From a virus (taxonomy: Duplodnaviria; Caudoviricetes): a stretch of DNA of 60,812 nt. Shown in pieces: positions 41,119 to 60,812 of the stretch. The translations under genes were made by a program, and so were the position numbers. The DNA lies in the IMG/VR virus record IMGVR_UViG_3300019752_000008, positions 1 through 60,812 of that record, one strand, 5' to 3'. Numbering within the stretch: the stretch's first letter is position 1; each line of letters starts with the position of its first letter. Under the pieces are notes generated by a model. It ran no database searches. It worked only from the letters and a program-made list of their open reading frames with translations, and was not told the origin of the DNA.

Positions 41119-42489
41119 ATGAGTAAAGAACTAACAACTGTAGAAAACGAAACTGGTGTGTTGGATTCAATACAAAACCTAGATAGTCTTAGTGCTATTA
41201 TAGAAAAAGAAAAAGATATTAAAGCAAGTGCTTCTGTATATCTCAATGGTGATGAATTCAATTTTATCGTAACAGAAAATAATGCAAGTGACGCAACAAC
41301 TAAGATTGCAGATATTAATAAGACTAAAAAGTCTTTTAAAGAGATGATTAAGCCTATCATAGATAAAGAATCTTCTGATATTCAGAAAGTGGAAAGTTTA
41401 GCAAAAGATATTGTTGATATGATGACCGCTAAATACAACAATAGAAAAGATGAGATATCGCAAGCACTTGAAAAAACTTTTATTGCACGTGAGAATTGGA
41501 TAAAAGAATATTTTATAAAACTAATAAGCAAGTGTATTATAGATATTGATATTAAATCTTTTGAGTCTTGTTGTAAAGCAAACAGAAACAAAACAACTTG
41601 GAAACTAAATGCAGATGGCACACCAAATAAAACTGCACTTGATAAAATAACAGCAGAGTTTGACACTATTGCCAATCCTTTGATTGAAGCAAAACTTGAG
41701 AAAGATAGAAAGGATGAAGAGTTAAGAGTTTTAAACGAGCAGAAACAAAAAGAAGAATTATTTTTATATAATCAACTTAAAGACATCAAGACTAGCGGGA
41801 CTGATGATGAGTTAAACAATTCTCTTGAAAAACTTAAGGATATTGACTCTAATATTGATACTTTATATACTTCTATTGCTACAGAAGCCAAAAGACAAGT
41901 TTCAAACATAATGGCTTTTGTAAACAATGGTCTTGAAACTAATAAAAAACACAGAGAAGATGTTGCTAGAAAAGAGGAAGAGTTAAGATTGAAAGAAGAG
42001 GAAAAGATTAAAGAGCAATTTGAGCCACGTTGGACTGAAAACAAAATCAGAAGTATTTTTGAAAAGCCTTATGGTCAAATGAATTTGTCTCTCGAAGATG
42101 CAGGTATGCACATGGACACAATCTCTAGCTATAACTTTGAACAGTTTGGAGACTTAAAGCAATTTGCTATAAATATTGCTAATCGTCAGATTTCTATTCT
42201 TGATAAGATTAGATATGCTATTGAAAAAAGACTTGAAAGTGAAGGTGAAAAAACTCCTGCACCAAAAACGGATGAGGGATATACTATATATAATATTCTA
42301 GTTACTTTAAAAGGTAATGAATTTGTAAATAGTCAATATATTGCAGCCCTTGAAAGTTCTACTAATATTTTATCATTAAAAATCAAAGACCCATATGGAA
42401 TAGATGAAGAGCAAGTTAAAACTCTAGCTAGAAACAAAATACTTAGTGATAGATGTGATGATGCTATTGAAAGTATTGAGGTTATTTAG
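41119..42489 (+). CDS. DUF1351-like coiled-coil protein
   Basis: VTEN....A...IADINK..K pattern; in the recombination module. Confidence 0.55.
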   Translation: MSKELTTVENETGVLDSIQNLDSLSAIIEKEKDIKASASVYLNGDEFNFIVTENNASDATTKIADINKTKKSFKEMIKPIIDKESSDIQKVESLAKDIVDMMTAKYNNRKDEISQALEKTFIARENWIKEYFIKLISKCIIDIDIKSFESCCKANRNKTTWKLNADGTPNKTALDKITAEFDTIANPLIEAKLEKDRKDEELRVLNEQKQKEELFLYNQLKDIKTSGTDDELNNSLEKLKDIDSNIDTLYTSIATEAKRQVSNIMAFVNNGLETNKKHREDVARKEEELRLKEEEKIKEQFEPRWTENKIRSIFEKPYGQMNLSLEDAGMHMDTISSYNFEQFGDLKQFAINIANRQISILDKIRYAIEKRLESEGEKTPAPKTDEGYTIYNILVTLKGNEFVNSQYIAALESSTNILSLKIKDPYGIDEEQVKTLARNKILSDRCDDAIESIEVI

Positions 42490-48137: not shown

Positions 48138-48758
48138 GTGAAAAAGAAATTTTTAAATCTATATGGCGGTATTGGTGGAAATGTAAAACTTTTAGATAGA
48201 AATGAGTTTAATATTACTACTGTTGAACTTGATGAAAATATAGCATCAGTTTATCGTGATATGTTTCCAAATGATACTTTAATTATAGGAGATGCACATC
48301 AATATTTATTAGAAAATTTTGATAAGTTTGATTTTATTTGGGCTAGCCCTCCTTGTCCTACTCATAGCAAACTTAGAACCTTAAACGAAAACAAAGTTTT
48401 TCCTGATATGAAACTGTATGAGGAAATTATTTTTTTAAAACACTGGTTTAAAGGAAAATATGTAGTGGAAAATGTAGAACCATATTACGATTATCTTATT
48501 AAGGCTACTAGAGTAATACATCGTCACCCCGTTTGGTGTAACTTTGAAATTTCAAATAAGCAATTTAAAAATCTTAAAACTTGCAAGATTGAAAACGAAA
48601 GGGAGTTTTTAGAAAAAGAATTTGGCTATGATCTTTCCAAATATAAAGGTATCGACAAAAGAAAAGTCTTGCGAAACTGTGTAGTTCCTGAACTTGGTAA
48701 ACATATAGTTGGATGTGCATTTGGCAAAAATACCATAGAAGAAGGTTACCTTTTTTAA
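48138..48758 (+). CDS. Short C5-cytosine DNA methyltransferase
   Basis: LYGGIGG, SPPC, ENV, RNCV. Confidence 0.88.
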   Translation: MKKKFLNLYGGIGGNVKLLDRNEFNITTVELDENIASVYRDMFPNDTLIIGDAHQYLLENFDKFDFIWASPPCPTHSKLRTLNENKVFPDMKLYEEIIFLKHWFKGKYVVENVEPYYDYLIKATRVIHRHPVWCNFEISNKQFKNLKTCKIENEREFLEKEFGYDLSKYKGIDKRKVLRNCVVPELGKHIVGCAFGKNTIEEGYLF

Positions 48759-49203
48759 TGAAAACCAAAAACGATAAAAACCCATCTAGTATATTTTGTG
48801 CCAATTGTGGCGATGAGCTCCCAAACTATACAGAATCTATAAAAAGAAGCTACTGCTACAAGAAAGAGTGCTGTGTTGCTAGAAAAGCAAATAATAAAAG
48901 AAAAAAGAGCAAGTAAAATAATACTCACTCTTTTTCTGACTGTAAATTTAAAAATACCAAAGGATTAAGTAAGTATATCTTATTTTGTTTTTTTGTGTCA
49001 AGGAGAAAAATATGAGCGATTACAATTTTGAAGATGAAGGTAACAGAGAATTAAAAATAGCTATTGCAATAGTAGTTGTTTTTATATTTGTTATTAATGT
49101 GGTTTTTAGGTAGTGTTTTAAGTATGGCTTTATTTTTATGTTGCTATACTTTTATTTTAACGAGCAAAGTCTTAAGTATTTATACTTTTGTACTTTGTTA
49201 ATT

Positions 49204-49339
49204 TTTTTGAATTACTTAGTAGGTGTCCAGCCGAAGTAGCCTTATCTCTTGATAGGGCATCTACTAAGGGATTTAAAAATGTAGACTTTGACTGGACACC
49301 AAAAATCTACACCTTAATTTTATTGTTCCGAAAGATACT
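49204..49339 (+). ncRNA. Structured leader/antisense RNA, copy A (c4/CI-like architecture)
   Basis: Alternative helices 49215-28/49255-68, 49239-46/49251-58 and 49222-37/49285-300; covaries with copy B. Confidence 0.65.
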
Positions 49340-49993
49340 ATGAAAAATATAGTGCAAGTTAGAGATGATAAACTTTTAGTGTCTATCAAAGATATTGCAA
49401 AGTTTAGTGGTGTAGAATATGAATCTACTCAAAGACTCGTGAGAAAGTCAAGAGATGAGTTCTTAGAACTTGGCTTAAGCATACCTAAAGAGTCGGATTT
49501 CAAATCCGTCTTATTTGATGAATATCAAGCTTCTTTTTTGATTACCCTTATGAAAAATACTCCTATTGTAAAAAGATTTAAGCTTGACTTGGTAAAACAG
49601 TTTAAAACATTAAACCTTGAGAGATGTGATAACAATAAAAAAGTTTTAGAATCAAAACAATACCAACTAAAACTATCTCAAAAAGAAACCGAAAAAGCTA
49701 AAAGACAAAAATATGCAACTGCTGGAGATGATGAGTTTTGTAATGTTCACAGATTTAGAATAGATCATGAACTTGACATATCAGATGAAGAACTAAACAA
49801 TATCTTTATAGATGAAAATATCCTTGGTCAAAAACTTGTGAATAGATATGTACCCTGCCCTACTGGTGAATTTTCTAAATATGATGGAACTTCTGTAGTT
49901 TTAAATATAAGAAAAATGCTAGATATTTGTGACAAGAGAAATATTAAGAAGATAGATGAAGAGTTGAATTTGTTTAATATGGAGCAATCATGA
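49340..49993 (+). CDS. Rha-family regulator / antirepressor-like
   Basis: E.QA.FL.TLMKN...V..FK..LVKQF. Confidence 0.8.
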   Translation: MKNIVQVRDDKLLVSIKDIAKFSGVEYESTQRLVRKSRDEFLELGLSIPKESDFKSVLFDEYQASFLITLMKNTPIVKRFKLDLVKQFKTLNLERCDNNKKVLESKQYQLKLSQKETEKAKRQKYATAGDDEFCNVHRFRIDHELDISDEELNNIFIDENILGQKLVNRYVPCPTGEFSKYDGTSVVLNIRKMLDICDKRNIKKIDEELNLFNMEQS

Positions 49994-50190
49994 AAAAGAT
50001 ATTTAATCTAAGTGTTCTAGGATACGGATTCAAAATTAGCTACTTTGGTTATGATAAAAACGAAAACTACGATGGAAGTCTGAGCAAGTGGGGAATAGGT
50101 AAACATTGGTCAAAATGGAATAATCCTCATATAACTTTTTTTATTAATTATAGATGGCTTTGCTTTCATCTGTTATTAAATAGAGACTAA
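49990..50190 (+). CDS. Hypothetical protein
   Basis: ATGA overlap. Confidence 0.5.
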   Translation: MKKIFNLSVLGYGFKISYFGYDKNENYDGSLSKWGIGKHWSKWNNPHITFFINYRWLCFHLLLNRD

Positions 50191-50212
50191 ATTAATACAA
50201 AAGGAGACATAA

Positions 50213-50548
50213 ATGATAAATAAAGAATTAATAAAGCAAAGAAAAGAGCAATATGGCTCAAACTTTAAAGACATAGAAGACAAATGGAACGAATATCTAC
50301 AACAAAACAAAGGCTTAGAATATCTAGTAACCATAATGGATGTATGTAATCTTATGGCACTTATGAAAACTGCTAGAATAGAAGCTATTGAGTTAAAAAT
50401 ACAAGAACTTAATGAACTAGAAAAAGGTTCATCTAGGTGTACTGATAGGATATATGACAAACTTCAAGAGTCTTTGAAAGACAGTATTGAAGACAGGAGT
50501 AATTATCTTTGGATAGCTAATAATTTTAAAGAATATGAGGAGATGTAA
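50213..50548 (+). CDS. DUF6378-like protein
   Basis: R..QYG..F..I...W...DV..LM.L.K.AR...DS..D...Y. Confidence 0.65.
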   Translation: MINKELIKQRKEQYGSNFKDIEDKWNEYLQQNKGLEYLVTIMDVCNLMALMKTARIEAIELKIQELNELEKGSSRCTDRIYDKLQESLKDSIEDRSNYLWIANNFKEYEEM

Positions 50549-50937
50549 TGAGCAAATGCAAACCACAAGGTATAAAAATAAAAGTAAGTGACTTTAAACA
50601 AGCACTTTTAAATAAAAAGTCAATTGATAGCAAACTATATATTCAACTAATTGAATCAACAATAGACAAAGTTCAAAAGCCCTCTATATTGAATCTTTGG
50701 AACTTATGGGGTGTAGAAGACAGAACAAGTATCGAAATAAACATTAACAAAGCTATCAAAAAATCTACAAATAAATTTATGATGTTCTATGATTTTGTAT
50801 CTATTGATTCTATTTATTGGGGAGAGCCAAACTTTAATTATTTTGAAGACCAATTGAAAATATGTGAAATTATACAAGATGAATTTATGTGGGTAGATAT
50901 GGATACTGCTGAGTTTGTTAGTAAGTATTGCGATTAG
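50548..50937 (+). CDS. Hypothetical protein
   Basis: GAGGAG RBS. Confidence 0.6.
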   Translation: MSKCKPQGIKIKVSDFKQALLNKKSIDSKLYIQLIESTIDKVQKPSILNLWNLWGVEDRTSIEININKAIKKSTNKFMMFYDFVSIDSIYWGEPNFNYFEDQLKICEIIQDEFMWVDMDTAEFVSKYCD

Positions 50938-50949
50938 AAGGGTGTATGA

Positions 50950-51942
50950 ATGACAAATAAACCAATACATAAGTTAGGACTTCCTTATATGGGTAGCAAA
51001 AGAAAGTTAGCAAAACCAATAATTGATTATATATTAAAACATAATCTAAATACTAAATATTTTTATGATGTATTTGGCGGTGGCGGTGCCATGAGTTTAG
51101 AAGCTATTCAAAGACCCAAAATAAAAGAAGTTTTTTATAATGATTTTAATACAGGTATAACTGAGCTTTTAAAAAAACTTGCCAAAGATGGTGTAGTAGG
51201 TGAGATGTATAAGTGGATAGATAGAGATACTTTTAAAAAGCATAAAGATGATGATACTTGGTATGGTGGATATTTAGCTACTGTTTGGAGTTTTGGAAAT
51301 AATAAAGATAAAGGGTATCTGTACGGAGCAGATATAGAAGAGGACAAAAAACTACTCCATAAAATTATAGTTTTTTCTTGCCAAGACTCTCTTAATATTT
51401 TAAATAACAAATATAATATTGGTATAAATCTTAATAATGGTATTTTTAAAGAAGATGTCATCCAAAGAAGACTTAGAATTGTTTCGGAAATTAAATCCTT
51501 TATTTGCTCTGATAATAGCAATCCTCTGGTGCAACATCTTATTATGATAGAGTCTTTAACACGACTACAGAACCTACAGAACCTACAGAACCTACAGAAC
51601 CTACAGAACCTACAGATATCGAATCTAAGCTACGAAAAAGTAAACATAACTACTGATCCTAAAGAAACTATAATATTTCTTGATCCACCTTATATAGATA
51701 CTGCAAAATACACTAAAGGAATTTGCCATAAGGAACTTTATGATTGGATTGAGCAACTTACCGATAAAGGATATAAAGTTTATCTTACAAGCTACGAAAG
51801 TCCTTTAATATGTGTAAAAGAATTTAAACATAGAAGTACGCTATCTGCAACTGCTAACAATGAGGTAACCGAGAAACTATTTAGTAATTTTAAGGATGTT
51901 ATAGAGCCTGAAAAAGTTATGACACAGGGGAGTCTATTTTAA
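50950..51942 (+). CDS. D12-class N6-adenine DNA methyltransferase
   Basis: PYMGSK, DVFGGGG, DPPY. Confidence 0.9.
   Translation: MTNKPIHKLGLPYMGSKRKLAKPIIDYILKHNLNTKYFYDVFGGGGAMSLEAIQRPKIKEVFYNDFNTGITELLKKLAKDGVVGEMYKWIDRDTFKKHKDDDTWYGGYLATVWSFGNNKDKGYLYGADIEEDKKLLHKIIVFSCQDSLNILNNKYNIGINLNNGIFKEDVIQRRLRIVSEIKSFICSDNSNPLVQHLIMIESLTRLQNLQNLQNLQNLQNLQISNLSYEKVNITTDPKETIIFLDPPYIDTAKYTKGICHKELYDWIEQLTDKGYKVYLTSYESPLICVKEFKHRSTLSATANNEVTEKLFSNFKDVIEPEKVMTQGSLF
51565..51615 (+). repeat. 9-bp tandem repeat CTACAGAAC (LQN)n
   Basis: 5 units plus a partial unit, in frame. Confidence 0.95.
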
Positions 51943-52154
51943 TGCAAACAAAAACTAAAAGCTTTATAGAAGCTAATACAAATACATTTATAGGATTTAT
52001 TGTTTCTTATATACTAGCACTAACTGTTTTGCCTTTATATGGTGTAGAACAATCGTTTAGCGTAAGTCTTGAGATTACTTTGATATATACTGTTGCTTCA
52101 AGTGGAAGGAATTATTTTGTCAGAAGGTATTTTAATAAAAACCAAATAAACTAG
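51942..52154 (+). CDS. Small 2-TM phage membrane protein
   Basis: QTK..S.IE...N..IG...R.Y.VRR.FN. Confidence 0.7.
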   Translation: MQTKTKSFIEANTNTFIGFIVSYILALTVLPLYGVEQSFSVSLEITLIYTVASSGRNYFVRRYFNKNQIN

Positions 52155-52279
52155 GCGACCGCACCATTGGAAACCTAGCTTAAAATATCTATCAAGGAGA
52201 TGTAAAATTATATCTAAAAACACCCATCATGTCAATATTTATTTTAACTTGATTTTTTATTTTATTTATTGTATAATGG

Positions 52280-52421
52280 TTTTAATATTCTTAATGAGCG
52301 TCCAAACTCATCTATGCTCTAGCACTTGCTAGGGCGTTCATTAAGGTTATTAATTTTTATGATAGATAGTTTGGACGCATTCAATCATAAAACCTTAAAA
52401 TTTATTGTTCCGAAAGAAAAC
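52280..52421 (+). ncRNA. Structured leader/antisense RNA, copy B (c4/CI-like architecture)
   Basis: Helices 52290-303/52332-45, 52316-23/52328-35 and 52298-315/52362-78; TATAAT at 52272. Confidence 0.65.
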
Positions 52422-53099
52422 ATGAACGAACTTTCCAAAGTTTTTAATGGTACACCGATAAAGGTGCAAGAAACTAATGGTGAACTGTTTTTTGACATAA
52501 GTGGTGTATCTGGAAGATATAAGAAGAATATCACTGATTGGAAAAACAGCAAAGAAACCTTAAATTACATTGAAGAGTTAGAAAAATCTAATCCTTTAGA
52601 TTATATTAAGGTTATCAAAGAAAGAGGCTCGCAACCAAAAACATTTATTCATAAAAAATTACTTATGCTATTTGCAAGATTTATAAATGTTAAATTTGCT
52701 ATATGGTGTGATGAAATTATTGAGTCAATACTAATAGGTGAAAAATCTTTAATCAACAATCAGCTACTCATGAAAGAAACTCAACTTAAAAATGCACAAA
52801 AACAACTAAGTGAAGTATCTAAAAATAATATGAAAACATATAAAGATGGATTCATGTCTCTTAGAAAATATATAAAAGATAGAAACATTAAAATCAGTCA
52901 AGATTTAGCTATAGAAAAATTACTTGAAAATAAGATCATAGACTACAAAGAGGTTGTAATAAATAAGCAACAACTTATAGAATCTTACTACGGATATCAA
53001 GAAAGTGAAGGTACAGGTATAAAGTTTAATCCTCGTGCTTTAGATGAGTTGTTTGTTTATGAGAATGAAGCTAGTTTATTTGATATGGGAGAATCTTGA
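52422..53099 (+). CDS. KilA-N domain antirepressor-like protein
   Basis: FNGT.I...W.....T..YI..L...TFIH..L...FARFI...FAIWCD; start by analogy with copy A. Confidence 0.85.
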   Translation: MNELSKVFNGTPIKVQETNGELFFDISGVSGRYKKNITDWKNSKETLNYIEELEKSNPLDYIKVIKERGSQPKTFIHKKLLMLFARFINVKFAIWCDEIIESILIGEKSLINNQLLMKETQLKNAQKQLSEVSKNNMKTYKDGFMSLRKYIKDRNIKISQDLAIEKLLENKIIDYKEVVINKQQLIESYYGYQESEGTGIKFNPRALDELFVYENEASLFDMGES

Positions 53100-53929
53100 T
53101 GATTGATTTATATAAAGGTGACTGTTTAGAGGTTATGGATGAGCTTATAGCTAAAGGTGTAGTTGTAGATGCAATAATTACAGACCCACCTTATGGTACA
53201 ACTGCTTGTAAGTGGGATTCAGTTATACCTATGCCTGATATGTGGCTCAGACTAAATAAACTCATCAAATCAAATGGTGCAATAGTACTTTTTGGAAGTG
53301 AGCCTTTTAGTAGTACTTTAAGAATGAGTAATATTAAGAACTATAAGTATGATTGGATTTGGGAGAAACAATATGCCACTAACTTCATGGGAGCTAAAAA
53401 TGCACCATTGAAGTATCACGAGAATATATCTGTTTTTAGTAACAATAAGCACTTTTACAATGGGCAACAATATAAAGTTATTGAATTAGAAGAAATACAA
53501 AATATGGATAAAAAATCATTATTGTCTTTTTTTACAGATAGGCTTTATGATAGGTTTGCAAAAGTGGACAGAAGAAAAAATGTTAACAATATAGAAGATA
53601 GGGGGGAATGTCACTTAGGAAAAGTAAAACACACTAGAAAAATAGATGATGGTTTTAGAAATCCAAAAAGTGTTATTAAAATAAATGGAAGTAAAAATAA
53701 TAATGTACATCCAACACAAAAACCAGTAGCACTAATGGAATATCTAATAAAAACATATACAAATGAGGGTGAGTTAGTTTTAGACTTCACTATGGGTAGT
53801 GGAACGACGGGTGTAGCTTGTAAGAACTTAGGTCGTGACTTTATCGGTATAGAGATGAATGATAAGTATTTTGACATAGCGAAAAAGCGTATAGAAGATA
53901 CAGTAGTAGAGAAAGGGTTGATTGACTAA
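53096..53929 (+). CDS. N4/N6 DNA methyltransferase (beta class)
   Basis: TDPPYG, HPTQKP, DFTMGSGTTG. Confidence 0.93.
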   Translation: MMIDLYKGDCLEVMDELIAKGVVVDAIITDPPYGTTACKWDSVIPMPDMWLRLNKLIKSNGAIVLFGSEPFSSTLRMSNIKNYKYDWIWEKQYATNFMGAKNAPLKYHENISVFSNNKHFYNGQQYKVIELEEIQNMDKKSLLSFFTDRLYDRFAKVDRRKNVNNIEDRGECHLGKVKHTRKIDDGFRNPKSVIKINGSKNNNVHPTQKPVALMEYLIKTYTNEGELVLDFTMGSGTTGVACKNLGRDFIGIEMNDKYFDIAKKRIEDTVVEKGLID

Positions 53930-53964
53930 TAGCTAATCTAACAGTCAAATAACCACTACCAAAA

Positions 53965-54792
53965 ATGGATTCTAAAAACTCCAATACCATACTATTGTCA
54001 AAAAAATGGGATAGACTAAAGGCTATTAAAAAAGCTAATAAGTCTAAACTCCATGACTTTTATTATCTTAGAGATAAGAGCATATCTAGTGGATTAAAAC
54101 AATTAATGCTAACATTCACTTATAAAGATGACGATAAATACTTCAAGATGGATGTAATCAACCATATAAAGAATTATGTTACCAAACAGTTAAGAAACTA
54201 TGGTATTAAATATTATGCAACGATTGAAGTTGGAAGTGACTATGACAACCCTCATGCTCATTTTCAAATATACTATGATGATATATCAAAAATAAACCAC
54301 ATTAAAGATGCCACAGTTGAGCGATATGGTCTTTTCTCTGAATATAGTACTACTACTATACCTAAATGTAAAGATGTACGATATGACTATGTAGTAAAAG
54401 ACTATAAGATACAAGACGATAATCAATTGTTACTATTAGATGATGTTAAGAGGGACTATAGATCTAAACTACATAAGAACATAAGGTTTACATCGTTTAG
54501 CAAGGAAAAGTATTCTAAGGCTATTTATAAGAAAGCATATAGTCATGGAATACTTAAGCAAAATGTTGATTGGTTGATTGATAATTGTATAATTAGTAAG
54601 GATATTGAGGTTACTGATTATAGAGTTATTTATTGGTTTGAGATGATGGTTTATTATTATTTTCAGTCATTTAGTATAATAATAGAACTAGTAAGTATGT
54701 CTACGACATTGATGTCGGAGACATATGGAATTAAAAAAGCCACACATCAAACAAAACAAAAGATATGTTTTGAGATATATGGCTTTTCATAG
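53965..54792 (+). CDS. HUH (rolling-circle Rep-like) endonuclease
   Basis: Motif 1 MLTFTY, motif 2 E......PHAHF, motif 3 YVVK. Confidence 0.75.
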   Translation: MDSKNSNTILLSKKWDRLKAIKKANKSKLHDFYYLRDKSISSGLKQLMLTFTYKDDDKYFKMDVINHIKNYVTKQLRNYGIKYYATIEVGSDYDNPHAHFQIYYDDISKINHIKDATVERYGLFSEYSTTTIPKCKDVRYDYVVKDYKIQDDNQLLLLDDVKRDYRSKLHKNIRFTSFSKEKYSKAIYKKAYSHGILKQNVDWLIDNCIISKDIEVTDYRVIYWFEMMVYYYFQSFSIIIELVSMSTTLMSETYGIKKATHQTKQKICFEIYGFS

Positions 54793-54939
54793 TGTGCGTC
54801 ACTAACAAACTGTAAGAGAATTATAGCGTAATTTTATAAAATTACTTCTATACGATGTAAACTTAACCTAAATGTAAAGATTTAAGTTTATTTTAATACA
54901 TTTATGTTAATATTTTAATATAACAAAAAAGGATATGAA

Positions 54940-55314
54940 ATGTTTTTAAATCAATCAGTTTATTACAATGATGGGATAGATACTTATCCTGTGGAAATTA
55001 AAAAGTGTAGCCCCAAGATGGTTTGGATCGATTTAGACGGACAAATCAAAAGAGTTAAAAAAACTAGTTGTCACTATCAAGAAACAGACGGCGGTTTTAT
55101 TTGTGTTGATAAGTTGGATAGGCTAATTTCTTGTAATAGTTCTAAAATCCCCGACTATACGATCATGAAAGATAGTGTTGTTAGCTGGCAAGGCTTTTCT
55201 TTTATTAAAGAAAGAAAAGCAACAGACGAGGATTATTCTATATATCCTCAAACTGTAGATAAGCGATATATTAGATGGTCTAATTGGACTAGTGAAGATG
55301 AAAAAGGACTATAG
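54940..55314 (+). CDS. Hypothetical protein
   Basis: AAGGAT RBS. Confidence 0.65.
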   Translation: MFLNQSVYYNDGIDTYPVEIKKCSPKMVWIDLDGQIKRVKKTSCHYQETDGGFICVDKLDRLISCNSSKIPDYTIMKDSVVSWQGFSFIKERKATDEDYSIYPQTVDKRYIRWSNWTSEDEKGL

Positions 55315-55621
55315 CATGATATTTGAATATGTTACAAAAAAAGAAATTCCATCCGAAGTACTTGAAGCTATAGATATCTTAAGGGCTAAAAATAACTCTT
55401 CAAAGCTTGATTCTTTAAAGGGTACTAAAATACTGCTACATGAAAATCACAGTACTAAAAGTCATTTTATTCTATCTGGTGAATTACCTTGGAGCGGAAA
55501 TTATTTTGCTAATTTTACACTAAATTTAAAAGGTTTGCACTTGGAAACGAGTTGTCATATAAAGTTACTAAATCATATTAAACTTTATTACGATTTAAAG
55601 GATAAACATGACAAGAGATAA
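55292..55621 (+). CDS. Hypothetical protein
   Basis: AAGGA RBS before MIFEY. Confidence 0.55.
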   Translation: MKMKKDYSMIFEYVTKKEIPSEVLEAIDILRAKNNSSKLDSLKGTKILLHENHSTKSHFILSGELPWSGNYFANFTLNLKGLHLETSCHIKLLNHIKLYYDLKDKHDKR

Positions 55622-55823
55622 ATTTTACGAAAAATTAAAAGCAAACAATATATCAAGAAAAGAGTTTTTTACGAACTTGCTTGGTAAAAAAACTGATTGT
55701 ATAAGTAGATACGGGAAATATGGTGAAATACCTAAGTTGTATGATAGGATTCTAGAGCTTTATATTTTTAAAAAGAAGTATGATATTTTGCAAGAAATAT
55801 TAGTAAGAAAGGATACCGAATGA
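55608..55823 (+). CDS. Small XRE-like HTH protein
   Basis: F.EKLK..NISRKEF...LG.....IS.YG...IP. Confidence 0.55.
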   Translation: MTRDKFYEKLKANNISRKEFFTNLLGKKTDCISRYGKYGEIPKLYDRILELYIFKKKYDILQEILVRKDTE

Positions 55824-56173
55824 GTGAAATAACAATAAGTAAAGAGTTAGTGAGTGAGGTTTTAAATATAAATTACGATTCTATAGATATTAGAAACAAT
55901 GTATTGTATATAACTTATAATGTTAAAAAATATTTCGATGGTAATGTAAAGGAAATCAACCTCTGCGAGTTCATACATAAGAACTGTAAAGAGTGGGCGT
56001 TAAACAAAGGGTTTTATTGGAGCATTAATTATGATTCAAAATACGTATGCGTAGAAATTCTAAAAGGAAGCATAAATAGAGAAGACGGAGAATGGAATCA
56101 ATCTATTTCTAAAACTGAAGAGGAAGCAATAATAAAAAATTGTGAATGGATACTAAAAAAACATAAAGGATAA
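55820..56173 (+). CDS. Hypothetical protein
   Basis: ISKELVSEVL...TE.EAIIK.CEWIL. Confidence 0.65.
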   Translation: MSEITISKELVSEVLNINYDSIDIRNNVLYITYNVKKYFDGNVKEINLCEFIHKNCKEWALNKGFYWSINYDSKYVCVEILKGSINREDGEWNQSISKTEEEAIIKNCEWILKKHKG

Positions 56174-56216
56174 AAAATGAGTAGTTGTTGTGAAGCCAAA
56201 GTAGTTTGGTATAAAG

Positions 56217-56429
56217 GTGGGTATGTTTGTAGTTGTTGTGGTATGCCACATCGTAAAGTTTTGGAATGATGAAATTATGGAAGAAGAAATAAGCTATGAA
56301 GAGTTTTTATGTTTTTGTGAGCAATGGAACATAGAGCCTTTGGATGAAAGTTCTGATTGGGAACAACAATATAGAGACAATGTTGAATATATGCAAACAG
56401 GAGAAGGCTACCCTACTGGGTTAAGATAA
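56217..56429 (+). CDS. Small acidic protein (start probably MEEEIS)
   Basis: Operon packing. Confidence 0.45.
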   Translation: MGMFVVVVVCHIVKFWNDEIMEEEISYEEFLCFCEQWNIEPLDESSDWEQQYRDNVEYMQTGEGYPTGLR

Positions 56430-56453
56430 AATAGTATAGATACTACAAAAGGA
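56426..56453 (+). promoter_or_regulatory. 28-bp palindrome+RBS element, identical inverted copy at 22787-22814
   Basis: ATAAAATAGTATAGATACTACAAAAGGA. Confidence 0.7.
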
Positions 56454-56458
56454 TAAAA

Positions 56459-57154
56459 GTGGAAAAGATTAAATTTCTAGAACTATATGCAGGAAGTGGA
56501 GGCATGGGTGATATTGCCCGTGCTTTAGGATATGAGGTTTTTAGTATAGATTGGGAGGATTATGAAAATGTTGACTTGCAAATGGATATCGCTAAGTTAA
56601 AGATTAGTGATTTACCTTGGATTCCTGATATTGTTCATATGAGTCCCGACTGTACAACATATAGTATTGCTGCTATTTCGACTCATAGAAATAAACATGA
56701 CAGAAGTGGAAAAACAGAATATGCAAAGCAATGTGACGCTACTAATTTGCATACTCAAAACCTGTTAAAAGAGTTGTTAATTTTAAATCCAAATTTGGTT
56801 TACTATATTGAAAATCCTAGAGGTGGTATGAGAAAGATGGATTTTATGGATTATTATCCTATTAGACATACGGTTTGGTATTGTCAGTATGGAGATGATA
56901 GAGCTAAGCCTACTGACATTTGGACTAACAATAAAGGCTGGATTCCTCGCCCTATGTGTCATAATAAGAAAAAAGATAAAGACGGTAATGTTATCCATCA
57001 TTGCCATCACGAGTCTGCTCCTAGAGGGTCTAAGACTGGAACTCAAGGGAAAAATTTGAGTTACGAAAGAAGTAAGATACCTCTTCAATTATGTGCTGAG
57101 ATTTTGATATCTCCCAGAATGCCCGTAGATAAAAAAGAAGGTGTCTTGTTTTGA
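56459..57154 (+). CDS. C5-cytosine DNA methyltransferase-like
   Basis: LELYAGSG, SPDC, IENP, YCQYG...KPT.IW, RSKIP. Confidence 0.85.
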   Translation: MEKIKFLELYAGSGGMGDIARALGYEVFSIDWEDYENVDLQMDIAKLKISDLPWIPDIVHMSPDCTTYSIAAISTHRNKHDRSGKTEYAKQCDATNLHTQNLLKELLILNPNLVYYIENPRGGMRKMDFMDYYPIRHTVWYCQYGDDRAKPTDIWTNNKGWIPRPMCHNKKKDKDGNVIHHCHHESAPRGSKTGTQGKNLSYERSKIPLQLCAEILISPRMPVDKKEGVLF

Positions 57155-60362: not shown

Positions 60363-60812
60363 TTACAGCCCGCTAATTGATACATAATTAGGTCTTTTAT
60401 TAATTGCTGTCAATATGGCTGTTATTCCATGATGTACCCCATTATTAAACGGCACATAATACACATATCTGCCGTCATATACCGCTCCTTGAAAACCTTT
60501 GGCTCCTGAGTTTCCTAATGATAAATCTATGTAGGCTACTGAATTGTCTGTAGTGTCTAGTATGGCTGTTATACCATGATATACCCCAGTGTAAAAAGGA
60601 ACATAATACACATATCTGCCGTCATATACCGCTCCTCTGAAACCCCTAGCATTTGAGTTTCCTAATGATAAATCTATGTAGGTTACTGAATTGTCTGTAG
60701 TGTCTAGTATGGCTGTTATTCCAAAATATGCCCCATTGTAATAAGGAACATAATACACATATCTGCCGTCATATACCGCTCCTTGAAAACCTTTGGCTCC
60801 TGAGTTTCCTAA
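60363..60812 (-). CDS. Tail fibre, C-terminal part with 49-aa GAVYDGRYVYYVP (beta-propeller-like) repeats
   Basis: Same repeat and same frame as 1-748 once the 43-bp overlap is merged; followed by a fibre-chaperone-like gene. Confidence 0.8.
   Translation of the reverse strand, partial: LGNSGAKGFQGAVYDGRYVYYVPYYNGAYFGITAILDTTDNSVTYIDLSLGNSNARGFRGAVYDGRYVYYVPFYTGVYHGITAILDTTDNSVAYIDLSLGNSGAKGFQGAVYDGRYVYYVPFNNGVHHGITAILTAINKRPNYVSISGL
60413..60812. repeat. 147-bp tandem repeat units (right part); last 43 bp identical to bases 1-43
   Basis: CATATACCGCTCC at 60476, 60623 and 60770 (147-bp period). Confidence 0.95.

Follow-up and report, generated by a model that had tools for sequence, protein, structure and literature searches.

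How can two messenger RNA leaders of different sequence follow one structural plan, and how are the genes behind them reached by ribosomes when no normal Shine-Dalgarno sequence precedes their start codons? This question is raised by the virus genome IMGVR_UViG_3300019752_000008, a complete virus record of 60,812 bp with approximately 31% G+C, which was analysed at its full length and is hereafter called the window. Two leaders in this window, leader 1 and leader 2, precede the genes for a Rha-like DNA-binding protein (gene 1) and a KilA-N domain protein (gene 2). In a preliminary description they had been regarded as twin covarying RNA switches with differing specificity in front of antirepressor-type genes. 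We found that two mutually exclusive folds of these leaders are both conserved by covariation in a family of relatives. Our leading interpretation, to which we assign a probability of approximately 0.5, is that each leader is a cis-acting, self-contained bistable element joined to a portable start module without a Shine-Dalgarno sequence.

The structural features listed in the preliminary description, namely a 14-bp stem, an 8-bp hairpin, a complement of 16-17 nt lying inside another hairpin, and an identical motif in front of the gene, were all present in both leaders (coordinates in Table 1). In each of the window leaders the stem of the 5' hairpin, S1, is 14 bp long, and its two G·U pairs occupy matching positions. 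Since the GGGC at the 3' side of the enclosed hairpin H also belongs to the 3' arm of S1, H and S1 compete. Downstream lies a second hairpin, D/P5, in which helix P5 adjoins hairpin D: AAGG(TT) just 3' of S1 pairs with (AA)CCTT just 3' of D. The loop of D holds, in both leaders, the 3' strand of a long-range helix (LR). The LR of leader 1 is a reverse complement with two mismatches, which was equalled by 0 of 100 shuffles. In a shuffle test of folding, the z scores were -4.80 for leader 1 and -5.03 for leader 2, and none of 200 shuffles folded as well. The covariance model of the family recognised only the two leaders in the window, with 140.4 and 107.8 bits, the next match scoring 13.4 bits.

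One 5' strand is common to S1 and LR, and two folds were distinguished. Fold A consists of S1 and D/P5 as two adjacent hairpins, and fold B is predicted to consist of LR, the full H and a weak third hairpin. A single pseudoknotted state with the lower part of S1 and LR formed together was ruled out, because the two 5' strands abut without a linker. With the relatives, collected by pattern scans of viral and metagenome contigs, the family amounts to at least 13 distinct leader sequences and 14 leader-gene junctions; across it the S1 stem measures 14-16 bp and LR 16-17 bp. Eleven leaders were aligned with MAFFT without reference to structure. In this alignment, 90.9% of the S1 cells were paired, compared with 36-49% in slid controls, and both sides had changed in 8 of 15 pairs, a result that none of 500 shuffles reached. 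For LR together with H, 85.6% of the cells were paired (slid controls, 31-52%), both sides had changed in 9 of 19 pairs, and the covariation score was again reached by 0 of 500 shuffles. The covarying RNA switch with alternative pairings that had been claimed for this locus was therefore recovered in the family relatives, for S1 as well as for LR with H.

An alignment-free test, in which the own strands of each leader were compared with the strands of the ten others in 5000 permutations, gave a similar picture for most helices. The observed cognate preference of the variable part of LR, the lower S1 stem and D was reached by 0 of 5000 permutations (printed p = 0.0000), and that of P5 had p = 0.0028 with the same 11 leaders and 5000 permutations. 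The apical part of H gave p = 0.87 in this test, for which the tested segment was badly placed; H forms in every leader, with -5.2 to -13.1 kcal/mol. In the S1 stem (n = 154 cells), the mismatch cells were G·U in 29 cases and A·C in 2. Since the mismatches are G·U and not A·C, the pairing is read on the sense strand, as RNA. The partner of the shared strand in S1 differs from its partner in LR by exactly two transitions, so that G·U and U·G stand in S1 where LR has G-C and U-A. Where the shared 5' strand had changed from C to U, the LR partner had followed from G to A in all three cases, and the S1 partner had changed in one of the three.

These data also bear on the differing specificity that had been ascribed to the two leaders. 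Their variable parts indeed do not cross-pair, the cognate combinations giving -5.9 and -6.9 kcal/mol versus -0.2 and -3.3 kcal/mol for the crossed ones, but the immunity role attached to this difference was not supported. The so-called specificity sequences are of the kind that ordinary compensatory drift in a cis structure would yield, and neither trans action nor an immunity role is required.

The predicted energetics of 12 leaders were then considered together with the order of folding. The unconstrained minimum-free-energy structure was fold B in 12 of 12 leaders, and the ensemble energy of fold B lay 5-16 kcal/mol under that of fold A. Upper-bound barriers of 18.6-26.7 kcal/mol were calculated along the direct path from A to B. 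The internal loop of S1 and the loop of D expose the variable bases that are complementary to each other, an arrangement that is, in the modelled structures, that of a toehold or a kissing contact. When growing transcripts were folded, the top of S1 belonged to the best fold in 9 of 12 leaders once its 3' arm had been made. LR became the best fold 0-2 nt after the end of GGAC in 12 of 12 leaders, which is 25-30 nt before the start module emerges. We infer that S1, and with it fold A, would form first in transcription as a kinetic trap. Since fold B would be the ground state as soon as GGAC has been made, transcripts would be expected to partition between the two folds by kinetics. Furthermore, D and P5 covary, yet they would never form near equilibrium, which implies that some molecules, or some conditions, keep fold A. 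By these predictions and by the covariation of both helices the leaders would count as bistable (metastable) mRNA leaders, a designation that implies no membership in the hok or MS2 systems.

The second part of the element is the start module. Two copies of the 17-mer TTTATTGTTCCGAAAGA are present in the window (49319-49335 and 52401-52417); no other window site was found at up to three mismatches, nor was the complement of the motif found in the window. The preliminary description had placed it 5 nt before the ATG and had noted the absence of a normal Shine-Dalgarno sequence; the motif and the absence were both seen again, and the spacing is actually 4 nt. No purine-rich Shine-Dalgarno sequence lies before the WTG or the ATG, whereas neighbouring genes carry AAGGAG-type sites and 50 of the 90 long open reading frames (ORFs) of this phage have a Shine-Dalgarno sequence. 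Across the family the motif reads TTTA-WTG-TTC-CGA-AAG, and its single variable base makes the start codon ATG in seven junctions and TTG in the other seven. An upstream ORF (uORF) of six codons (MFRKxx), with a TGA overlapping the ATG of the gene, was present in 8 of 14 junctions. The WTG was fused in frame with the gene, with no intervening stop, in 4 of the 14, and in the remaining 2 a stop was followed by the gene start 0 or 3 nt on. In all eight overlap cases the base after the ATG was A, the background being 0.50 in 352 ORFs of six phages (P approximately 0.004). The distance from the motif to the gene start codon was constant, 17-18 nt, in 13 of 14 junctions. Moreover, among 195 distinct motif contexts the motif was never a ribosome-binding site without the leader architecture.

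This arrangement suggests that ribosomes would start at the WUG and reach the gene either directly, in the fusions, or by termination and reinitiation at AUGA. Alternatively, GAAAG, which stands 5-7 nt before the gene start in 13 of 14 junctions, might act as a weak Shine-Dalgarno sequence; it could pair only with a 16S rRNA that has a CUUUC tail. The first gene of these operons probably starts at a non-canonical site that gene callers miss. Two other candidates were rejected. A conserved peptide as the sole cause of the motif was ruled out by the absence of synonymous changes together with the different peptide (MSE...) of a divergent subfamily, and a mini-ORF running from the 5' arm of D behind UAAGG lacked a start codon in 3 of 13 leaders and varied in length from 1 to more than 20 codons.

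We propose the following mechanism. S1 would form first and sequester the strand that is able to open D/P5. The emerging 3' strand of LR would then either displace the G·U-weakened S1 partner, which leads to fold B, or be enclosed as D closes round it, which leads to fold A. Fold B would be a three-way junction, in which the 5' strand of S1 has left its partner and pairs with the D loop as a Watson-Crick helix of 16-17 bp; the formation of LR would dissolve S1, D and P5 and complete H. In fold A, the D/P5 hairpin would end 6-12 nt before the WUG, where a Shine-Dalgarno sequence would sit, and in fold B approximately 35 nt of A/U-rich RNA upstream of the WUG would be open. The fold may set the number of ribosomes able to load, with translation as the output. 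Fold B would accordingly be the ON state in this scheme, and this assignment is the weakest step of the model. Another output is possible, for example mRNA decay via the 5' end, which would be paired in fold A and free in fold B.

Several observations weigh against the bistable leader as we draw it. The family is small and its members are related, and the shuffle controls therefore overstate the significance. The top of S1 was absent from the fold of the growing transcript in 3 of 12 leaders. The predicted unpaired probability of the start region hardly depended on the fold: the gain in fold B was +0.08 at positions -15 to -5 (higher in 9 of 12 leaders) and only +0.01 around the start codon. 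Since accessibility is nearly equal in both folds, the assignment of ON and OFF rests on geometry, not on computation. In addition, 15 of the 16 motif bases are invariant and UUC-CGA-AAG shows no synonymous change, which neither the fold nor coding alone explains, and the divergent subfamily keeps similar bases with a peptide that begins differently.

The family itself was gathered in several scans. An exact 16-mer scan of viral contigs gave 40 stretches and the members L016 and L030; gapped and motif patterns in viral contigs (at least 103 stretches in the motif scan) added L046, L078, L233, L263 and L342. The metagenome scan gave 10 stretches, of which nine were true (L479, L482 and L487 new, five duplicates and one truncated) and one false, and a pattern for the S1 side gave 10 stretches of viral contigs, five of them true (all duplicates) and five false. 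A scan of viral contigs for the divergent motif TTTTATTGTCGGAAAG gave 55 stretches and yielded L514 and the divergent copy of the phage record G002. When five other phage records were searched with the covariance model, a single copy was found in four, and G002, the sole two-copy record among them, contained a second, divergent copy, the two belonging to different subfamilies. The G002 leaders lie at L030 1158-1306 (the same stretch as L499 1501-1649) and L030 4408-4555. The core of the divergent copies is GGGTCG/CGACCC versus GCGTCC/GGACGC in the other members. In the scan of genome contigs, none of the loci among the matches listed had the leader architecture.

Database searches gave no name for this family. 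Rfam had no match in the whole window at the gathering score, and five chance matches to snoRNA and miRNA families (all E >= 1.5) when positions 48900-52600 were searched with E up to 10. A literature search with the letters of the motif returned unrelated primer-type matches only. The main text of PMC10690425 names no such motif, and its supplementary set of 10,006 candidate phage RNAs may include the leader. Judged by their sequences, both window leaders are members of an undescribed RNA leader family outside Rfam.

The genes behind the leaders are diverse. They code for Rha-like proteins (two), a KilA-N protein, winged-helix proteins (two), a DUF6291 protein, a CHC2-primase/AAA helicase, a radical-SAM-like protein (under the cut-off), a 54-amino-acid membrane peptide followed by an HTH/Rep-O-like protein, and three proteins without a family. 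The antirepressor-type assignment is a loose one: gene 2 passes the Pfam cut-off for KilA-N, and gene 1 stays under that for Rha. The Rha-family gene that follows the L030 leader, to which gene 1 is 52% identical, codes for a protein that reaches 33.6 bits and exceeds the Pfam cut-off; no close relatives of gene 1 were found by peptide patterns. The proposed tie of the leaders to antirepressors did not survive the comparison with the relatives, in which winged-helix, DUF6291, primase-helicase, radical-SAM-like and no-family proteins follow the same leader. L046 5643-5786 and L482 1166-1309 are an identical leader in front of two unrelated genes (a 203- and a 74-amino-acid winged-helix protein). 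That the two sequences part a few bases 3' of the invariant motif suggests that the start module is a boundary of recombination.

Promoter-like sites of at least 9/12 were found within the 66 nt up to the S1 start in 7 of 13 leaders, versus 10% of random windows, and the leaders head early or replication gene blocks in AT-rich phages. The only gene common to the leader-bearing phages was that for SSB, in 5 of 6 records. Since the downstream genes are diverse and the phages have almost nothing else in common, the element behaves as a portable promoter-leader-start cassette and not as an antirepressor-specific device. A wider and distinctly less likely version of this idea is that promoter, leader and start module move as one cassette between otherwise unrelated phages and can stand before any gene, since the gene would be reached by AUGA overlap or in-frame fusion. 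A host component, be it the ribosome or a protein that binds RNA, would read the module. Through its rare codons (UUC, CGA and AAG) the module might then report the translation state of the host, and the two-state leader would make of this reading a choice between all and nothing for the entire early or replication operon.

We weighed the bistable leader against other explanations. A trans factor, whether a host protein, the ribosome or a small ligand, could set the fold of the same two-state RNA, with its binding site either in the invariant 16-mer or at the conserved top of S1 and H (GAGCGUCC...CACUUG...GGGCGUUCA); the leader would then be a riboregulator that responds to this factor. Both the S1 top and the 16-mer are conserved beyond the needs of pairing, and D/P5 covary, yet near equilibrium LR precedes the synthesis of the D 3' strand, so that something must hold S1 closed in a fraction of the molecules. 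The conservation of the S1 top can, on the other hand, be explained by one strand that has to fit two partners; the invariant positions outside the start motif lie in the strands of S1, H and LR, and in the contexts given above the motif is never a ribosome-binding site without the leader architecture. As for a metabolite riboswitch, no Rfam riboswitch or aptamer was matched, and no conserved junction stretch was seen, unlike in known ligand pockets. The leader-bearing phages share almost no genes, and a common regulator would therefore have to be the host's; one encoded by the phages was rejected, SSB, an unspecific protein, being the only common one among the six records. Taken as a whole, a trans factor is an unlikely explanation, though it deserves more weight than those that follow. 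One of these, already implied in the preliminary description, is that S1 is released as a short antisense RNA like P1/P7 c4 or P4 CI and represses D-loop targets in trans. Several features would suit such an RNA: the transcript has a hairpin first and, further downstream, a site to which exposed bases of this hairpin are complementary; the two copies are orthogonal in their variable bases; loop-to-loop complementarity is typical of antisense pairs; and a T-rich run follows S1 in 6 of 11 leaders. The supposed membership in c4, c4-a1b1 or isrK was nevertheless contradicted by the Rfam search, which matched none of them, and the pairing does not extend over the ribosome-binding region: the LR 3' strands reach to 49300 and 52378, the WTG follows at 49323 and 52405 and the ATG at 49340 and 52422, so that the target ends 22-26 nt before the WUG and 39-43 nt before the ATG and leaves the start region uncovered. 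Full transcripts each carry their cognate 5' strand in cis, and the LR strands have no further match or target in the genome on either strand. Most genes behind the leaders are not of the antirepressor kind, this phage showed no tyrosine integrase, and one copy stands in 4 of the 5 other phage records; the immunity circuits once suggested are thus not supported either. Release by termination is not favoured either: no consistent U-tract follows S1 (in 4 of 11 leaders, the adjoining 9 nt contain just 3-4 T), and a terminator scan flagged nothing within the leaders. We regard this explanation as improbable.

The same region speaks against an attenuator with an intrinsic terminator, since the S1 base is A/U-rich with 3-7 T in the 9 nt after S1 (11 leaders), and a competing strand that lies downstream cannot prevent termination in cis. 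Slightly less probable than the antisense RNA is an RNase III processing site, as cut in T7 and in the lambda N-leader, in which LR stacked on H would present approximately 25 bp of near-continuous double-stranded RNA, the cutting of which would separate the genes from read-through transcripts. Such transcripts are likely, since the leaders lie within a long same-strand gene block, and in the predicted fold the 16-17-bp LR stacks directly on the 8-9-bp H; but the covariation of the alternative fold (lower S1, D and P5) and the invariant start module would be left unexplained. We consider it very improbable, finally, that the element acts at the level of DNA, as an operator, a promoter or an origin-like inverted repeat. 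It is true that GGAC[GA]C followed 16-18 nt on by TAAAAT resembles -35 and -10 boxes in some copies, that TGGACG-18-TAAAAT of leader 2 scores 9/12, and that the leaders adjoin replication genes. However, the excess of sense-strand G·T over A·C mismatches reported above is not expected from the symmetry of double-stranded DNA, TAAAAT is replaced in L479 and in the divergent subfamily with compensating changes in the partner strand, and the motif keeps its fixed distance from the start codon of the gene in 13 of 14 junctions.

Table 1. Positions in the window of the two leaders, their helices and reading frames, and of neighbouring genes
Feature	Position	Strand	Basis or remark
Leader 1	49215-49339	+	sequence
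Leader 2	52290-52421	+	sequence
S1 (5' hairpin), leader 1	arms 49215-49228 / 49255-49268	+	duplex -21.8 kcal/mol, p = 0.000
S1 (5' hairpin), leader 2	arms 52290-52303 / 52332-52345	+	duplex -21.1 kcal/mol, p = 0.000
Hairpin H, leader 1	49239-49258	+	enclosed by S1
Hairpin H, leader 2	52316-52335	+	enclosed by S1
LR (long-range helix), leader 1	49222-49237 / 49285-49300	+	duplex -25.1 kcal/mol, p = 0.000
LR (long-range helix), leader 2	52298-52315 / 52362-52378	+	one bulge; duplex -24.7 kcal/mol, p = 0.000
Hairpin D, leader 1	49280-49285 / 49306-49311	+	
Hairpin D, leader 2	52357-52363 / 52384-52390	+	duplex -8.3 kcal/mol, p = 0.003
P5 helix, leader 1	49265-49269 / 49312-49316	+	
P5 helix, leader 2	52341-52348 / 52391-52398	+	duplex -8.3 kcal/mol, p = 0.007
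Second hairpin (D/P5), leader 1	49265-49316	+	
Second hairpin (D/P5), leader 2	52341-52398	+	
uORF, leader 1	49323-49343	+	MFRKIL; TTG 49323-49325; TGA overlaps ATG at 49340
uORF, leader 2	52405-52425	+	MFRKKT; TTG 52405-52407; TGA overlaps ATG at 52422
Gene 1, Rha-like DNA-binding protein	49340-49993	+	217 amino acids; Pfam Rha 20.5 bits (cut-off 29.9); phrog_2657 E = 7e-08
Gene 2, KilA-N domain protein	52422-53099	+	225 amino acids; Pfam KilA-N 43.2 bits (cut-off 23.8); phrog_129 E = 4.1e-15
Promoter-like site before leader 1	49157-49186	+	TTAACG-18-TATACT, 9/12 in consensus scan; weak
Promoter-like site before leader 2	52249-52277	+	TTGATT-17-TATAAT, 10/12
Methyltransferase-like, C5 type	48138-48758		covers only first third of Pfam model
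D12-class N6-adenine methyltransferase	50950-51942		
Methyltransferase-like, N4/N6	53096-53929		
Methyltransferase-like	56459-57154		phrog_757

Both leaders are situated inside a long plus-strand gene block (approximately 41-57 kb), which contains genes for an ERF recombinase, a PDDEXK nuclease, SSB, dUTPase, several DNA methyltransferases and a Rep-like protein. Terminase, portal protein and a tape-measure protein of 2168 amino acids are encoded on the minus strand. The best match of the terminase was to a Thiohalocapsa phage (29.9% identical), followed by Nitratiruptor phages (25%). Of the window ORFs, 40 were scanned, and none was recognised as part of a repressor module; the window has no tRNA genes. 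The ends of the window overlap exactly by 43 nt (1-43 and 60770-60812), labelled 'direct terminal repeat' in the record; a circularly closed assembly fits this overlap equally well as true terminal repeats.

Four methyltransferase-like genes lie within 9 kb (48138-57154), and their role is probably restriction evasion. Within the D12 methyltransferase gene, the 9-bp tandem repeat CTACAGAAC stands at 51565-51616 in 5.8 copies with 100% matches; it is in frame and gives LQN repeats, which may be a length-variable linker. The plus-strand block is headed by an ORF of 456 amino acids (41119-42489), in which residues 291-320 resemble a colicin E5 ribonuclease domain with 21.9 bits, under the Pfam cut-off of 25, and for which no PHROG family was matched.

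On the minus strand, a perfect sigma-70 consensus (TTGACA-17-TATAAT, 12/12) lies at 52235-52207 and points away from leader 2. It faces the 3' end of the DUF7220 gene (51942-52154), and would yield an antisense transcript or drive a frame of 41 amino acids (52098-52223). Another promoter-like site, TTGACA-18-TATACT (11/12), is contained in minus-strand positions 49001-48890, followed by a 15-bp hairpin and T-run at 48936-48901. A candidate small RNA of approximately 70 nt, at about 48966-48890 on the minus strand, has a fold of -16.6 kcal/mol (z = -3.72). This RNA was rejected as a partner of the leaders or the motif, as its duplex energies do not surpass those of shuffles (p = 0.18-0.94).

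Among known systems, the closest functional likeness is to the hok/sok-type mRNAs of type I toxin-antitoxin systems, which have metastable 5' hairpins, long-range refolding and translation coupled to the overlapping mok frame. In both cases a long-range helix of greater stability would displace a hairpin that formed early, with access to the gene via an overlapping upstream frame. The leaders differ in that neither a toxin gene nor a gene for an antisense RNA was found with them, the refolding would proceed without 3' processing, and regulator or replication genes lie downstream. In the MS2 maturation-gene leader, a long-distance pairing closes the ribosome-binding site. There, as is predicted here, expression is governed by which parts fold first while the RNA is being made, and no ligand is involved; however, LR would remove a start-adjacent hairpin, and the start region is unpaired in both predicted folds. 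The rpoS leader with DsrA, a case of anti-antisense activation, is alike in that an inhibitory hairpin is opened by an RNA strand pairing with its arm or loop, whereas here the activating strand would be built into the leader and would itself be sequestered in S1.

The antisense RNA c4 of P1/P7 controls icd-ant by pairing of an antisense segment across the site where ribosomes bind the regulated frame. The leaders resemble it as structured RNAs upstream in the transcript of a phage regulator gene, with a short complement to a downstream site and related copies that differ by compensatory changes. They differ from it in the absence of an Rfam match, in a target off the ribosome-binding site, in the diversity of the downstream genes, and in a phage without a tyrosine integrase or a recognised immunity region. 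In P4, pairing of the CI RNA (seqA/seqB/seqC) terminates transcription prematurely and confers immunity in trans. There as here, a single strand can pair with two sites of the same leader; here these are the 3' strand of LR and the 3' arm of S1. In our leaders, however, the two partners compete for one strand in a single molecule, and no terminator-like element follows.

Few bistable mRNA leaders are known in which covariation supports the one fold as well as the other, and such leaders usually come to light in single gene families. The present leader is compact (approximately 125 nt), with a built-in toehold, a decoy partner weakened by two conserved G·U pairs, and a fixed module before unrelated genes. 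If the bistable leader is true as proposed, it would be a case of natural strand-displacement logic in gene control and a ready-made part for RNA engineering. It would furthermore show how phages time or gate their replication genes without a protein repressor.

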